IMG/VR virus record: IMGVR_UViG_2706794675_000010
Length of the DNA: 9,508 bases
DNA from: a virus
Taxonomy: Duplodnaviria > Heunggongvirae > Uroviricota > Caudoviricetes
Reading direction: 5' to 3' (one strand)
In this document: positions 1 to 8,464 of the stretch, one piece after another
How positions within the stretch are numbered: the stretch's first letter is position 1
Layout: each line of letters starts with the position of its first letter
Translations under genes and position numbers: made by a program
Notes under the pieces: model-generated
The model's database searches: none
Told to the model about the DNA's origin: nothing
The model's input: only the letters and a program-made list of their open reading frames with translations

Positions 1-242
1 GAACAGGAGGGACAGCTGATAGAAACAGAAGCCACTGGAGCACCTCAAAAACACCATCATACACTAAATCAGTAAGTTGGCAGCATCACCCCGCCACAGA
101 ACAATTATTGCTTTTGCCGTTGATGACAATAAAGTTTTTATCGCAGGCGTATACCACGGTGGGCAAATCTATGAAACCGATTTTTTATCCAGTGCACCGT
201 AAAACCCCCATCCTTCAGGGCGTGGCGGATATCAAACTTTGG

Positions 243-1325
243 TCATTTTCTCTGGCTGATCTTTACCGGATAACCATCCCGAAGATCAATTAAGTGCTCC
301 GGTTCAGAAGCAAACCATGCATAAGATCCCCACGCCAATTCTGGTATTGCCTTTTTAAAAGGCAGAGCACTTCTGTCCATAAATGCCGTAAGGAATGCAA
401 GATTTTTCTCGCTGAACCCAGCGTCAATAGCCAAATGAGTGAGAGTAACTTTTCGTTCCCTGTTTATAGGCCCATCTGTCGCAACTACTTCAGTGAAAAC
501 TACAAGCATGTCCGAACCCGTTCGGTCCTCTCCCAAATCAATCAAAATAATATCTGGAAGTGCTTTTGAGGCATCAATATTCAGCCCCAATGCTTTTGCC
601 AATACATCATCCTGAGCAACAACTTTATTCCCGGATTCAGACAACCAGAGCACAGTTGGATTCTTAAGAAAATTAGGAGCAAAAACTTCGATGACGGCCT
701 TAGCTATTGTACTTGACGGGCCCGGAGCTAAAGTTCTCTTCTCTCCATTTGGGAAAGTGACGACTACGGCATCAGCAGCAATCACTGCCCCTGATTTCAA
801 TAAACGCAACCTAGCAAGAGCGGCTTTGTTCAAATGATTTTCTTGCCAGGAACTTATTGCACTCAGCAGCGAATCTCCTTCAAGCCCGGCATCAAAGAGT
901 GCTGCAAAAGAGCGATTCAAACTGTAACGAGGACGAGAGGATGTGGTGGGTATACCTTTACGCTCAACAATTGCATTGCAAGGTATTAGGCCATTTTTTA
1001 TAGTTTCATCACGTATTGGCTCACGCGTATTTTCCGCATACCATGCATCAGCAGGCCTTATCTTTTGTTTAGAGAAAGTCATCTTTACCCAGCTTTCTCT
1101 GGACGCATCATCAGTAAGAGCAGCCTGCGAATCTCCCATACTTACAACCTGGCTGGGCCTTATCCATCGCCCCAGCCCCTCAACCGCACCAGCATAAAAC
1201 ATGACAAAAATTGTTTTTGCAGCTATTTCCCGAATTAAATATCCACGATTCTCAGTCCCTTCAGGGAAAATTAATTGTAATCTTTCCCGGATAACATTCA
1301 ATGGGGGAACAACAGGCAGATTCAT
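243..1325 (-). CDS. Putative restriction endonuclease-like partner of the adjacent methyltransferase (possibly BsuBI/PstI-like Type II REase); function unproven
   Basis: 360-codon ORF. Its ATG (1325-1323) overlaps the TGA stop of the upstream methyltransferase gene (ATGA at 1322-1325), with GGAG about 10 nt upstream. N-terminal part looks winged-helix-like; C-terminal part has LPDIILIDLGED...MLVVFTEVVAT, which could be a degenerate PD-(D/E)xK core but lacks a clear ExK. Family guess rests on size, context and memory, not a search. Confidence 0.6.
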   Translation of the reverse strand: MNLPVVPPLNVIRERLQLIFPEGTENRGYLIREIAAKTIFVMFYAGAVEGLGRWIRPSQVVSMGDSQAALTDDASRESWVKMTFSKQKIRPADAWYAENTREPIRDETIKNGLIPCNAIVERKGIPTTSSRPRYSLNRSFAALFDAGLEGDSLLSAISSWQENHLNKAALARLRLLKSGAVIAADAVVVTFPNGEKRTLAPGPSSTIAKAVIEVFAPNFLKNPTVLWLSESGNKVVAQDDVLAKALGLNIDASKALPDIILIDLGEDRTGSDMLVVFTEVVATDGPINRERKVTLTHLAIDAGFSEKNLAFLTAFMDRSALPFKKAIPELAWGSYAWFASEPEHLIDLRDGYPVKISQRK

Positions 1326-3154
1326 GCAATCATCACTCCATAGAAACCAGCGATAGTTCTCTCAATAATCCGTCTGTGGACGCCAGCATCAATTAACGAT
1401 TGAATCTCCATCACCTGCTCCAGAGAAGGCAACGGGATTGAATTCAATTCATAGGCCGAAACAGCAACACTTCCGCTTATACACCTGAACGCCCGATCGA
1501 CAACATGCGAATTAAGTAGCATATCAATAACATCAGGGCGAACCGCAGAGAACAATCCGTTTGAATATACAATATTAATATGGTTTTCAACTACTACGCC
1601 ACCAGTTTCATCTATAAATCCCTGAGGTAAAATTGCCGCTAAAATCCTTCTGTCCTGTTCCTTCGATGTTGTCCGCTGAACAAGCACACATTCAGATTTT
1701 GTCACAAGGAAACCCTGTTGTGGGGTTATATCGATATAGGGAACATGATTTTTTCTGTCTGCACTAAAACGAAAACCAGCTGAAGTTATTGATTCCGCCC
1801 AGACTAATGGGTAGCTATTTTTTCCTTTCGTCGTACGCAACTGCGACTTAAATCGATTCCAGACTAACTGACCTGTAGAGACTGAGTATCCCAGATCAGC
1901 TAAACGCGTAGACATCTGTTTTAATACATTAAGAAAACAGGCATCATCTTTAACGCGTGGCAAAAGCCACGTTGCTCCACCTTTTTCTATATCAACATTA
2001 CCTATTTTCTCAATTTTTGCTTTGTTCAACCCCTTAGGGACAAGTGAGGATACCTGGGCCCGAACTTTATGTTCTCCCGCCTTGAATGCTGTCAACATTG
2101 TTTCCTGGAGAACATCGTCAAAGACCCCATCCCTGTCAGTGACGAAATCAAGGGCATACGGAGTAGTTTTTTCGGTCAAAAGGGTTCGCAGCGCGGTGAA
2201 ATACTGCCCACCAAGAAAAGAAGTTGGCGTAAGAAATGCAATAACTCCTGTTTTCTCTTTAACCATGCGAACAGCTAAGTCGGTGAACAATCCATATAGA
2301 TTTGCATGACCAAATAACGAACGAGAATATTTTTCTCTCGTTTTAATATCGAGAGTGACACGTCCGTAAGGCGGATTCCCTACCACAAGATCATAACCAG
2401 AAAATTTATCTTGCTGAAGCGCATCAGCAACAATAATTGTATCTTCAGGCAATCTACGTTTTACCTTTACACATAGTGGCATTAGTACAGATTCGAGCAA
2501 TACCAAACTCATCCAAGCCGCAAATGGATCGATCTCTATCCCCTTTAAACGACGACTGATTCTCCTCAACATCCATTCAGGGGAAGACCCCTTGTCTTTT
2601 TTTAACATTCGAATGGCTACTGGTGCCAAAAATGCACCGCCACCACACGCAGGATCAATAACCGATGCATGAGAAAAATCAACACCAGACTTTTCAGCCA
2701 GGTCCAAGAGACGCGCTACCAAAGGTGGGGGGGTATAGTAAGCCCCCAATTCCGAACGGTAAGCGGATGGCAGCATTACCGTATAAATTGACCCAATCAG
2801 ATATCCAGCGTCCTCCGCCGGAAATTGAGCAATAAGCTCACCTGTTCGTTCAGCGAGCTCGCGTGCATCACATGGAATGTCTTCTATGTAAACAGTGTGC
2901 GGTACTGCCCTCATTTTAATGCTGCTTTTTTGCTTTTTTGCAAGGGTATCCCAATATGCAGCTACGATGCTGAAGCAGTATGAGCGGGCATGCATCAACC
3001 TTGACTGCCCGGTTTTGTAATTGCCCGCATAACCTTTGGCCATGGCTTTACAAGTTTGATATCTTTCCAGATTAGAAAACTCATTATCTGTAAAAAAATC
3101 AAAATGTTGCACATTCATAATGTAAAATCCTAATGTATCAAACATGCGGGCCAT
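1322..3154 (-). CDS. Gamma-class N6-adenine DNA methyltransferase (TaqI/Eco57I-like), 610 aa with C-terminal target-recognition region
   Basis: Motif X-like GAYYTPP (aa 137-143), motif I VIDPACGGGAFL (verified on DNA, minus strand of 2627-2656), motif IV GNPPYG (minus strand of 2366-2377). Order X, I, IV with about 340 aa of C-terminal extension fits gamma-class amino-methyltransferases. Start uncertain: ATG at 3154 has a weak SD; an in-frame ATG at 3118 has AGGA 9 nt upstream. Confidence 0.85.
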   Translation of the reverse strand: MARMFDTLGFYIMNVQHFDFFTDNEFSNLERYQTCKAMAKGYAGNYKTGQSRLMHARSYCFSIVAAYWDTLAKKQKSSIKMRAVPHTVYIEDIPCDARELAERTGELIAQFPAEDAGYLIGSIYTVMLPSAYRSELGAYYTPPPLVARLLDLAEKSGVDFSHASVIDPACGGGAFLAPVAIRMLKKDKGSSPEWMLRRISRRLKGIEIDPFAAWMSLVLLESVLMPLCVKVKRRLPEDTIIVADALQQDKFSGYDLVVGNPPYGRVTLDIKTREKYSRSLFGHANLYGLFTDLAVRMVKEKTGVIAFLTPTSFLGGQYFTALRTLLTEKTTPYALDFVTDRDGVFDDVLQETMLTAFKAGEHKVRAQVSSLVPKGLNKAKIEKIGNVDIEKGGATWLLPRVKDDACFLNVLKQMSTRLADLGYSVSTGQLVWNRFKSQLRTTKGKNSYPLVWAESITSAGFRFSADRKNHVPYIDITPQQGFLVTKSECVLVQRTTSKEQDRRILAAILPQGFIDETGGVVVENHINIVYSNGLFSAVRPDVIDMLLNSHVVDRAFRCISGSVAVSAYELNSIPLPSLEQVMEIQSLIDAGVHRRIIERTIAGFYGVMIA

Positions 3155-3368
3155 AACATCTCATGGTGGCGCATAGCAAACTGGCCCGAAGAATATCACG
3201 CACCAAGTCGATCTCATAACCCGTTATGACAATAAATCTTTGTAGCTGAACTCACTTGGTGATTTGTCAATCATTCCTGGCCTCCAGTTCGTCCTGAATC
3301 TCTTTATCGAGTTCACCGTATTTGTTAGTCCTCATCACTCACGACTTGACTTCCAGAAATAACCTTGA
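3155..3368 (-). promoter_or_regulatory. Intergenic region upstream of the methyltransferase operon; candidate independent promoter (unmapped)
   Basis: 214 bp without a convincing ORF, in a stretch where the other genes are tightly packed or overlapping. Contains a perfect TTGACA on the minus strand (plus 3265-3270), but I could not pair it with a good -10 hexamer. Confidence 0.3.
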
Positions 3369-3725
3369 TTATTCGGGGCTATATTTTGTCACCCTGCGTA
3401 TCCGCGCTTTCGCATTACGCTCAATCTGGATTAGCTTTTCTATATTTTTTCGCCTTTCCCGCTCCTCCTGGCGCAAGAGCCTTACATCATCTGCCAGTCT
3501 GGTTTCTCTTTTCGCCACAGAGAGCATCCAGTCAAATGGCTCCACAACTGCACCGCAAATTTTACAGCGGACCTGACGCTCTTTTTCGTCAACCCGGACA
3601 GAAGCGTGATGGCAATATGGTCTTTCCGATGGCTCATAAAGAAAATTAACCTGATTACGAGGGTTATCCTCTTTTACCGGAAATAAAACAATATTGCTTA
3701 ACTCATCTTCTGGTTTTATTTCCAT
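3369..3725 (-). CDS. Hypothetical protein, 118 aa, with Cys/His cluster (zinc-ribbon-like) and basic coiled-coil-like C-terminus
   Basis: ORF with strong SD AGGAGAGGAG immediately upstream of the ATG at 3725-3723. The track's longer version starts at a GTG at 3782 directly after the upstream stop. Motif PYCHH...x17...CKIC; C-terminal tail rich in R/E/K. Confidence 0.55.
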   Translation of the reverse strand: MEIKPEDELSNIVLFPVKEDNPRNQVNFLYEPSERPYCHHASVRVDEKERQVRCKICGAVVEPFDWMLSVAKRETRLADDVRLLRQEERERRKNIEKLIQIERNAKARIRRVTKYSPE

Positions 3726-3782
3726 GCTCCTCTCCTTTGATGCGAATGCCAGCGGTAATTGAAGCCTGATAGCTAATTTCAC

Positions 3783-4205
3783 TCACAGTACCGCCTCCTG
3801 AAAATCACCCTGATAGAAAGCCGGTACACGCTGCATAACTTCACTCTTCCGGCACTCGCGACAGATTATGTTCTGATGTCTGTCGTAGCGGCGTATTTCT
3901 CCGTCCGGTAATGACCAGATAAGGTCCGGATCAACCACAGATGGTTTCTTCAGCTTTGCCCTCGAGAGTTTTTTGCGGGCGTTTTGCCAGTCCTTACGAG
4001 CCTGTTCAGACGGGAATAACCCGTAGCCAGAGTTGTATACATCCCCACTGGCAACCAGCTCTCTGGCGAGAACGCTTATTAAATATCTTGTCGCCCCGGT
4101 TTTAGCTTCCAGTTGTCGTAACGTCTCGCGCCCACTCTGGCGTACGAGTTCAACAACCTGCCCCTTAATTTTTTCCCGCTCTTCCTGTGTAAATACTTTT
4201 GCCAT
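3783..4205 (-). CDS. Hypothetical protein, 140 aa, with N-terminal HTH-like segment and C-terminal CxxC
   Basis: ATG at 4205-4203 (MAKVFTQEE...) preceded by a G-rich SD (GGGGG) and lying 15 nt after the upstream stop at 4221-4223; the track ORF begins at a TTG at 4220. HTH-like LRQLEAKTGATRYLISVLARELV; CRECRK near the C-terminus. No family recognised. Confidence 0.55.
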   Translation of the reverse strand: MAKVFTQEEREKIKGQVVELVRQSGRETLRQLEAKTGATRYLISVLARELVASGDVYNSGYGLFPSEQARKDWQNARKKLSRAKLKKPSVVDPDLIWSLPDGEIRRYDRHQNIICRECRKSEVMQRVPAFYQGDFQEAVL

Positions 4206-5470: not shown

Positions 5471-5748
5471 NNNNNNNNNNNNNNNNNNNNNNNNNNNNNN
5501 NNNNNNNNNNNNNNNNNNNNNNNNNNNNNNNNNNNNNNNNNNNNNNNNNNNNNNNNNNNNNNNNNNNNNNNNNNNNNNNNNNNNNNNNNNNNNNNNNNNN
5601 NNNNNNNNNNNNNNNNNNNNNNNNNNNNNNNNNNNNNNNNNNNNNNNNNNNNNNNNNNNNNNNNNNNNNNNNNNNNNNNNNNNNNNNNNNNNNNNNNNNN
5701 NNNNNNNNNNNNNNNNNNNNNNNNNNNNNNNNNNNNNNNNNNNNNNNN
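5471..5748. other. Run of 278 N (assembly gap or masked sequence)
   Basis: Ns directly visible from 5471 to 5748. The gap removes the 3' end of the O-like gene and the 5' end of the DnaC-like gene. Track ORFs that are mostly X across this span are artefacts. Confidence 0.99.
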
Positions 5749-7425: not shown

Positions 7426-7459
7426 CAAAGTGATTAGCAATCTTATTAGAATTGGATGT

Positions 7460-7960
7460 ATGAAAAGAAAATCATTGTCAGACACCGACCTCAACGCCGC
7501 CAGAAGACTGAAAGAAATCTGGATGGCAAAGAAATCTCAGTTGGGATTGACTCAGGAACGTGCGGCGGAAATTATGGGGTTTTCAACACAAGGGGCGGTA
7601 AGTCACTACCTAAATGGTCAAACCCCACTAAACCTTGAGGCTGTTCTAAAGTTTGCTGGCTTACTGAAAGTTCCCCCTGAGTCAATCAGGCCAGACATGG
7701 TAGATTTGCTGCAAATTGCAAGGATGTATTGTCGAGAACCACAGCAAGATAACATAGTCGCATTACCAGCAGACACAGAACAAACAGAGGATGAACTACC
7801 GTTTGCCGTAGAGCCGATGGAACGAGATTTAATCCATACGTTCAGAGCTTTTCCGAAAGAAGATCAAGAACACATGCTTCAGGAGATGAAAGATAAAAAA
7901 GAATCAATGGATCGTACGGTTGCGCGGTGGTTAGCTGCACAAAAAGGCCGTCGCGCCTAA
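7460..7960 (+). CDS. cI-like XRE-family HTH transcriptional regulator (PaaR-like) without a recognisable S24 peptidase domain
   Basis: HTH segment LTQERAAEIMGFSTQGAVSHYLNGQTPLNLEAV. ATG at 7460 (track ORF starts at a GTG at 7430). Transcribed divergently from the Cro-like gene and followed on the same strand by a toxin-antitoxin pair, as in the paaR-paaA-parE arrangement I recall from E. coli O157:H7 prophages. Confidence 0.75.
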   Translation: MKRKSLSDTDLNAARRLKEIWMAKKSQLGLTQERAAEIMGFSTQGAVSHYLNGQTPLNLEAVLKFAGLLKVPPESIRPDMVDLLQIARMYCREPQQDNIVALPADTEQTEDELPFAVEPMERDLIHTFRAFPKEDQEHMLQEMKDKKESMDRTVARWLAAQKGRRA

Positions 7961-7979
7961 ATCAGAGGAGATATGTAAA

Positions 7980-8174
7980 ATGAGTACAGTCCTTTCCCCA
8001 ATGGTTTCAGAATTTGAGACAGTTGAGCAAGAAAATAGTTACAACGAATGGCTGCGGGCCAAAGTAGCAGCAAGCCTCGCGGATCCCCGCCCGGCGATTC
8101 CGCATGATGAGGTAATGGCGGAAATGGAACAAATTATTGCCCAAATTGCTGCTGCAACTCACAGAGGTGAATAA
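7980..8174 (+). CDS. Small antitoxin (PaaA-like) of a ParE-family toxin
   Basis: 64-aa ORF with GAGGAG 9 nt upstream. Its TAA stop overlaps the ATG of the downstream toxin gene (TAATG at 8172-8176). Small, acidic protein. Family named from context and memory. Confidence 0.7.
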   Translation: MSTVLSPMVSEFETVEQENSYNEWLRAKVAASLADPRPAIPHDEVMAEMEQIIAQIAAATHRGE

Positions 8175-8464
8175 TGTTACCCGTTTTATGGCTACCATCT
8201 GCTCGTGATGATTTGCGCCAGATCGTAGCCTACATAGCTAAAGAAAATCCCGCGGCAGCACGCAGAATGAAAATTCGAATTGAAACATCCGTTTTGCCGC
8301 TCACAGAGCATCCTTACCTGTATCCTCCAAGCGAGCGAGTTCTTGGTCTTCGTGAAATTGTAACTCATCCTAACTACATCATCCTTTACCGAGTAACAGC
8401 ATCAAGCATAGAAGTAGTAAATATTGTGCATTCTCGAAGACAGTATCCAGGCAAAAACAGTTAA
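8174..8464 (+). CDS. ParE/RelE-superfamily toxin (ParE-like)
   Basis: 96 aa with the typical ParE pattern: MLPVLW...ARDDLRQIVAYIAKENPAAA...HPYLYPPSERVLGLREIVTHPNYIILYRV...IEVVNIVHSRR. SD AGAGGTGA upstream; translationally coupled to the antitoxin. Confidence 0.85.
   Translation: MLPVLWLPSARDDLRQIVAYIAKENPAAARRMKIRIETSVLPLTEHPYLYPPSERVLGLREIVTHPNYIILYRVTASSIEVVNIVHSRRQYPGKNS

Follow-up and report, generated by a model that had tools for sequence, protein, structure and literature searches.

The restriction-modification locus and its surroundings

The stretch of DNA analysed here, referred to as the window, comprises 9,508 nucleotides of a tailed-phage record in IMG/VR (IMGVR_UViG_2706794675_000010; Caudoviricetes). 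Its minus strand carries two overlapping genes, one for a BsuBI/PstI-family type II restriction endonuclease (R) and one for an adenine DNA methyltransferase (M), which are listed in Table 1 together with the sites and neighboring genes discussed below. Of the RelE/ParE-family gene that converges with the R gene, the window retains no more than a 3' remnant, as stop codons interrupt the frame upstream of position 92; a full ParD/ParE pair occupies the matching place in Escherichia coli FDAARGOS_943. Just upstream of the M gene, an ORF of 137 aa (3369-3782, minus strand) has a weak, sub-threshold zinc-ribbon match (PF08271, 2e-4), and between this ORF and the M gene no gene for a helix-turn-helix controller (C) protein is evident. 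A promoter and terminator scan of positions 1-3900 gave no enrichment relative to shuffled sequences.

The replication-gene region holds a replisome organizer and a DnaC-like ATP-binding protein. It also contains a run of 278 N (5471-5748), a masked stretch or an assembly gap, which results in an artefactual low-GC dip and in X-filled ORFs. The genes at 7430-8464 on the plus strand look like a three-gene toxin-antitoxin module within the prophage immunity region, which resembles paaR2-paaA2-parE2 of E. coli O157 prophages.

Table 1. Positions of the genes, domains and predicted functional residues in the window.
Feature	Position	Strand	Details
RelE/ParE-family toxin gene	92-202	+	Last 36 codons, 3' remnant; convergent with R gene
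R gene	243..1325	-	360 aa, ATG start; BsuBI/PstI-family type II restriction endonuclease; ORF, Pfam, PADLOC, RefSeq
C-terminal PD-(D/E)xK-fold catalytic domain of R	279..764	-	aa 188-349; Pfam PF06616
R291 codon	453..455	-	Helix after third core strand; equals SdaI R260; predicted substitute for the canonical lysine
A282 codon	480..482	-	SdaI K251 (ExxK) position; non-lysine here and in nearly all relatives
E279 codon	489..491	-	Equals SdaI E248; predicted metal ligand; E in 76/78, invariant in 70
D258 codon	552..554	-	PD motif; equals SdaI D233; predicted metal ligand; D in 76/78
E213 codon	687..689	-	Acidic residue (SdaI EEF motif), conserved; first helix of PD-(D/E)xK core
N-terminal winged-helix (wHTH) DNA-recognition domain of R	810..1298	-	aa 10-172; Pfam PF17728
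ATGA overlap	1322..1325	-	4 bp; M stop TGA with R start ATG; read from sequence
M gene	1322..3154	-	610 aa, upstream of R gene; gamma-class N6-adenine DNA methyltransferase; Pfam, PADLOC, motifs
GGAG Shine-Dalgarno sequence	1336-1339	-	10 nt upstream of R start; read from sequence
HTH_3 regulator	7430-7960	+	176 aa; prophage immunity region
PaaA2 'stability determinant' antitoxin	7980-8174	+	64 aa; 3e-23
ParE toxin	8174-8464	+	96 aa; 1.8e-17

Methyltransferase partner and operon structure

In the M protein, motif I (DPACGGG, aa 167) precedes motif IV (NPPY, aa 260), which is the gamma-class order. The protein has Pfam matches to Eco57I and N6_Mtase, and the PADLOC model MTase_II PDLC03338 is matched over its full length (E = 1.8e-300). 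Compared with M.EcoGIII, the methyltransferase of a PstI-type system in Stx2 prophages, it has 26% identity across 355 aa, a span that takes in the C-terminal target-recognition part (E = 7e-27); among solved structures, M.TaqI is matched in the PDB (E = 3e-8). In RefSeq, the M partner is named 'HsdM family class I SAM-dependent methyltransferase'. Judged by the MTase_II match and the homology to M.EcoGIII, the M protein is the cognate type II gamma-class adenine methyltransferase, and this name is misleading.

The ATGA overlap of the two genes, together with the GGAG sequence upstream of the R start, suggests that M and R are translationally coupled. Compared with their Citrobacter orthologues, the dN/dS values are 0.062 for R and 0.064 for M, at a dS of about 1.4. 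Both genes are under strong purifying selection.

Domains and family assignment of the R protein

Both Pfam domains of the BsuBI/PstI family are found in the R protein with scores far beyond the gathering cut-off of 27 bits: the HTH domain PF17728 (aa 10-172) at E = 1.2e-30 and 107 bits, and the nuclease domain BsuBI_PstI_RE, PF06616 (aa 188-349), at E = 9.3e-45 and 152.2 bits, the latter alignment spanning profile positions 2-152 of 154. No competing Pfam family was found on the R protein at E up to 1. In PADLOC, a defence-system library whose restriction-modification models are derived from REBASE, the REase_II model PDLC03589 is matched over the full length (E = 2.8e-128). The scan of the R protein against NCBIfam matched no model, which is a matter of library coverage and not of missing homology. 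A copy with 99.9% identity is present in E. coli FDAARGOS_943 (NZ_CP065615) and is entered in RefSeq as WP_001053102.1, 'BsuBI/PstI family type II restriction endonuclease'. RefSeq names R correctly, defence models capture the pair, and both the family and its active-site variant are well described.

Homologues of the R protein number in the thousands in a large protein collection, and 1004 clusters were obtained at E up to 0.001 in a representative library. Among the 120 matches listed, most of those that bear a name are annotated as 'BsuBI/PstI family type II restriction endonuclease'. The clade of the R protein is widespread and occurs in Enterobacteriaceae, Burkholderia, Xanthomonas and Pseudomonas. 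XphI, XorI and XmaII are isoschizomers of PstI. In the literature searched, no characterised member of the clade from Xanthomonas or Enterobacteriaceae was found, and the 360-aa clade appears to be biochemically uncharacterised there.

Fusions to a methyltransferase may exist among the relatives of R. The R protein matches positions 595-831 of the 840-residue 'MTase_II' model PDLC03359, and in a representative sequence of 727 aa (P0276) the R-like region lies at residues 458-715. According to PMC2441816, a small number of proteins in the R.SdaI subfamily have methyltransferase domains.

Predicted structure

The only significant PDB match of the R protein at the sequence level is SdaI (2ixs), with E = 1.8e-16 for the single sequence and E = 1.8e-39 for a profile built from 70 family sequences. 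SdaI cuts CCTGCA/GG, and its crystal structure was described by Tamulaitiene et al. in 2006. An AlphaFold model computed from the 70-sequence diverse alignment reached a pLDDT of 92.7; another, computed from a shallow alignment of 22 close homologues, had a pLDDT of 65.8 and an unfolded C-terminus and was discarded. In a Foldseek search of the former against the PDB, 2ixs_A was the sole significant match (E = 4.8e-18), and the further structural neighbors are other PD-(D/E)xK nucleases and wHTH proteins. Judged from this model, the R protein resembles SdaI in three dimensions, including the PD-(D/E)xK core. The modelled helix 289-301 carries R291, and another helix spans aa 98-113 of the N-terminal domain.

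These results bear on a sequence-only reading of the ORF, which had guessed at a BsuBI/PstI-like enzyme from the size, a wHTH-like N-terminus and the genomic context. Pfam profiles, the SdaI match and the fold comparison fully confirm this guess, and a wHTH domain at the N-terminus and a restriction-endonuclease fold at the C-terminus are both borne out. Structure prediction had been proposed as a way to look for a nuclease fold, and it returned SdaI as the top structural match. The refuting result named in advance, a confident hit in some unrelated family of non-nucleases, did not appear; the matches are to nuclease and wHTH proteins only.

Active site and the missing lysine

The same reading had noted a PD and an E but no ExK lysine, and this description of the ORF is accurate. 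The peptide LPDIILIDLGED is located at aa 256-267 and MLVVFTEVVAT at aa 273-283, and E279 is followed by V-V-A-T-D-G-P, with no lysine at +2 (canonical ExK) or at +3 (ExxK of SdaI). The canonical PD-(D/E)xK signature, in which a lysine stands two residues after the acidic residue of strand 3, is therefore absent from the R protein. In the alignments, P232-D233 of SdaI corresponds to P257-D258, E248 to E279, K251 to A282 and R260 to R291. The aspartate of LPDI and the glutamate of TEVV, which had been put forward as candidate catalytic residues, are the equivalents of SdaI D233 and E248.

Conservation of these positions was followed in an alignment of 78 sequences, which consists of diverse representatives together with R.EcoGIII, an Acinetobacter plasmid enzyme and SdaI, and in a separate alignment of 70 homologues with identities down to 23%. 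Residue R291 is an arginine in 76 of the 78 sequences, the other two having a gap, and E213 is a glutamate in 71 of them and at least 90% conserved in the 70-sequence alignment. At the position of A282, the 78 sequences show A (50), H (7), V (5), S (4), Y (3), T (2), F (2) and N (2), and a lysine is found only in SdaI. Column 281, at +2 after E279, holds V in 70/78, and a lysine at +2 is also absent from SdaI, R.EcoGIII and the other homologues, so that it does not define the BsuBI/PstI family. Exactly seven columns are invariant in the 70 homologues (L16, P57, R101, R105, W160, E279 and R291), in which P257 and D258 are at least 90% conserved. Invariant residues in the 22 close homologues are P257, D258, E279, V280, V281, A282, D284, G285, P286 and R291. 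Given this conservation, the absence of the lysine from the R protein is not a chance pattern.

In R.EcoGIII, the motifs read PDVVLHF...LLLVESVTSHGPVDGKRH and ESVTSHGP, with a T at the 'lysine' position and the arginine kept (GKRH). According to PMC3893438 and PMC6602927, R.EcoGIII is biochemically active and cleaves CTGCAG. Because column 282 is almost never a lysine and R.EcoGIII is active with a T there, the missing ExK/ExxK lysine is the norm of the family and is compatible with activity; K251 of SdaI is the exception. According to PMC3045609, the active site of SdaI is composed of D233 and E248, K251 (ExxK) and R260 on the next helix, and R260 outweighs the other basic residue of the site. 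The basic role is there assigned mainly to R260, the counterpart of the invariant R291. PMC2441816 lists the R.SdaI subfamily as an example of migration of the catalytic K. By analogy with SdaI, R291 may take over the role of the canonical lysine, and E213 would also have a catalytic role. K234 was considered as a relocated lysine (K in 49/78, R in 9/78), and R291 was preferred, being invariant and experimentally backed in SdaI.

The displacement of the basic residue to the following helix in the SdaI/PstI family was published between 2006 and 2011. The R protein shows that lacking the literal ExK lysine is no argument against nuclease function in PD-(D/E)xK enzymes.

Distribution and genomic setting

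Of the 5426 complete E. coli genomes searched with blastn, two carry the R-M pair. Orthologues are present in Citrobacter sedlakii (86% identity for R and 84% for M), with the same 4-bp overlap. There, the pair belongs to a lambdoid prophage, in which it follows the replication genes, DUF977 and Ead and precedes DUF968 and the lysis genes, and the layout in the prophage of E. coli FDAARGOS_943 is equal to this. The shared slot in the E. coli and C. sedlakii prophages suggests that the R-M pair is a mobile 'moron' cassette swapped among enterobacterial lambdoid phages. Rare as it is in E. coli, the locus probably restricts incoming DNA and changes the methylome of its carrier strains.

On plasmids of Burkholderia, Xanthomonas, Pseudomonas, Sphingomonas and Rhodopseudomonas, R homologues with 50-67% identity adjoin genes annotated as 'Eco57I restriction-modification methylase domain-containing protein' or 'N-6 DNA methylase'. 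A PstI-type M-R pair was also observed on a small mobilizable plasmid, pBspH5 of Acinetobacter sp. NEB 394 (1472-3843), where R has 314 aa and the motif EAVTSHGP, and where the pair is flanked by BrnT/BrnA toxin-antitoxin genes and a gene for an S-4TM putative pore-forming effector.

Among the close relatives, P0002 is an abundant cluster at 90% identity, with 345 member sequences. Its representative is identical to the window protein until about residue 324. The tail of this representative is frameshifted (…PFKRQYQNWRGDLMHGLLLNRST, 344 aa), and the last conserved strands are lost. Some carriers at least seem to have an inactivated R gene, unlike the window, whose copy is intact.

Recognition sequence

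To our knowledge, all characterised members of the family share a CTGCAG core, with CTGCAG as the site of PstI, BsuBI and EcoGIII and CCTGCAGG as that of SdaI. The abstract of the SdaI study reportedly places the specificity determinants on the recognition helix of the wHTH domain. A helix with the pattern YA-x-N-[ST]-R-E-x-[IF]-R (aa 96-105) is common to the R protein, R.EcoGIII and SdaI and would be the recognition helix of the R protein. In the stretch around the helix at aa 98-113, W95, Y96, R101, E102, R105 and D106 are invariant or nearly so, and R.EcoGIII and SdaI share this stretch. Because the characterised members share the core and the putative recognition helix is conserved, a target with a CTGCAG core is fairly likely for the R protein. 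The window contains 2 CTGCAG sites where 2.2 are expected, a count that has no bearing on specificity.

Interpretation and alternative explanations

What is established for the R-M pair is its family and fold, the conserved residues, the arrangement as an operon and the purifying selection. With high confidence, the ORF at 243..1325 is read as the nuclease component of a type IIP R-M system that is carried by a prophage and belongs to the BsuBI/PstI/SdaI family, with a variant active site and coupled to M. In this system, the N-terminal winged-helix domain of R would read the target sequence, and D258 and E279, with E213, would bind Mg2+ in the C-terminal PD-(D/E)xK-fold domain. The invariant R291 on the following helix would give the positive charge that is otherwise provided by the ExK lysine. 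Catalysis by D258, E279 and R291, actual cleavage of DNA and the likely target sequence are predictions for the R protein. M, as an NPPY adenine methyltransferase, would shield host and prophage DNA by m6A methylation. Together, R and M would restrict unmodified incoming DNA, and they may also stabilise or retain the prophage.

An active enzyme of this family could have a clade-specific target that differs from CTGCAG or CCTGCAGG, which is possible, if on the unlikely side. R and M each share no more than about 26% identity with their EcoGIII counterparts, the N-terminal domain of R is about 40 residues longer and aligns poorly with EcoGIII and SdaI before aa 90, and M carries about 120 extra N-terminal residues. 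Also, the PADLOC models of the pair, PDLC03589 and PDLC03338, stand apart from the far lower-scoring next-best models PDLC03420 and PDLC03227. These differences are to be set against the helix at aa 96-105, which is conserved with R.EcoGIII and SdaI and keeps R101 and R105 unchanged throughout the 70 homologues, and against the CTGCAG core that is found in all characterised members known to us. A more specific form of the proposal is unlikely: that the 360-aa clade with its 610-aa M, at about 26% identity to PstI-type enzymes, targets a site other than CTGCAG or CCTGCAGG and may use R291 alone, with no nearby lysine. If true, the new target would widen the specificity range of the wHTH-plus-nuclease architecture, and the sole reliance on R291 would put the lysine-migration idea to a clean test in nature.

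That R is a catalytically dead or decaying relic, such as a pseudo-nuclease or DNA binder, with M acting alone, for example as an epigenetic regulator, is very improbable. The canonical lysine is absent and the close relative P0002 is frameshifted, and PMC6602927 reports that prophage methyltransferases (EcoGIII) influence host transcription. However, the R gene of the window is intact and of full length, its dN/dS against the 86% identical orthologue is 0.06, D258, E279 and R291 are conserved family-wide, the coupled M-R arrangement is conserved, and the active R.EcoGIII is also without the lysine. The sequence-only reading had taken the missing lysine as a hint that R might be an effector other than a restriction enzyme. 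An effector of this kind, for instance a toxin or an abortive-infection nuclease with a different fold or chemistry that simply adjoins a methyltransferase, is barely credible here. The hint loses its force in a family that lacks the lysine almost throughout, the active R.EcoGIII included, and apart from it only the NCBIfam null speaks for an effector. The full-length sequence and structure matches lead to one orthodox type II restriction endonuclease family, no rival Pfam family appears at E up to 1, and the next structural neighbors are PD-(D/E)xK nucleases and wHTH proteins. The reading as the restriction endonuclease of a type IIP R-M system is therefore retained.

Comparison with known systems

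One of the closest described systems is R./M.EcoGIII, which is of PstI type with CTGCAG as its site and is carried by Stx2 prophages (E. coli O104:H4 C227-11, phage P13374). The R.EcoGIII sequence used here was taken from phage P13374, and the C227-11 protein (P0216) differs from it by one residue, outside the motif. The window pair is like EcoGIII in its Pfam families, its location in a lambdoid prophage, the position of M upstream of R, the lack of the lysine and the conservation of the arginine. The two systems differ in sequence, with identities of 26.5% for R and 26% for M, and in size, the EcoGIII proteins being shorter (R 317 aa versus 360 here, M 489 aa versus 610 here). EcoGIII lies beside cI in the immunity region of Stx phages, whereas the window pair lies downstream of the replication genes. 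At the DNA level, the R-M pair showed no likeness to EcoGIII, its blastn matches in E. coli being confined to the two genomes given above.

PstI and BsuBI (CTGCA/G) are the founders of PF06616 and PF17728, and the R protein of the window is a fellow member by profile. When R.EcoGIII was used to seed a homologue search, the sequences retrieved were all near-identical ones from E. coli, with neither PstI nor BsuBI among them. With about 316-326 aa, PstI and BsuBI are nearer to EcoGIII than to the 360-aa clade, and their partner is also a gamma-class N6-adenine methyltransferase. The R protein shares its core fold with EcoRV and PvuII, which are canonical PD-(D/E)xK enzymes, and its predicted acidic metal ligands likewise lie on strands 2 and 3. 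Unlike in EcoRV and PvuII, the basic residue of the R protein would come from the next helix, and sequence recognition would be performed by a separate wHTH domain.
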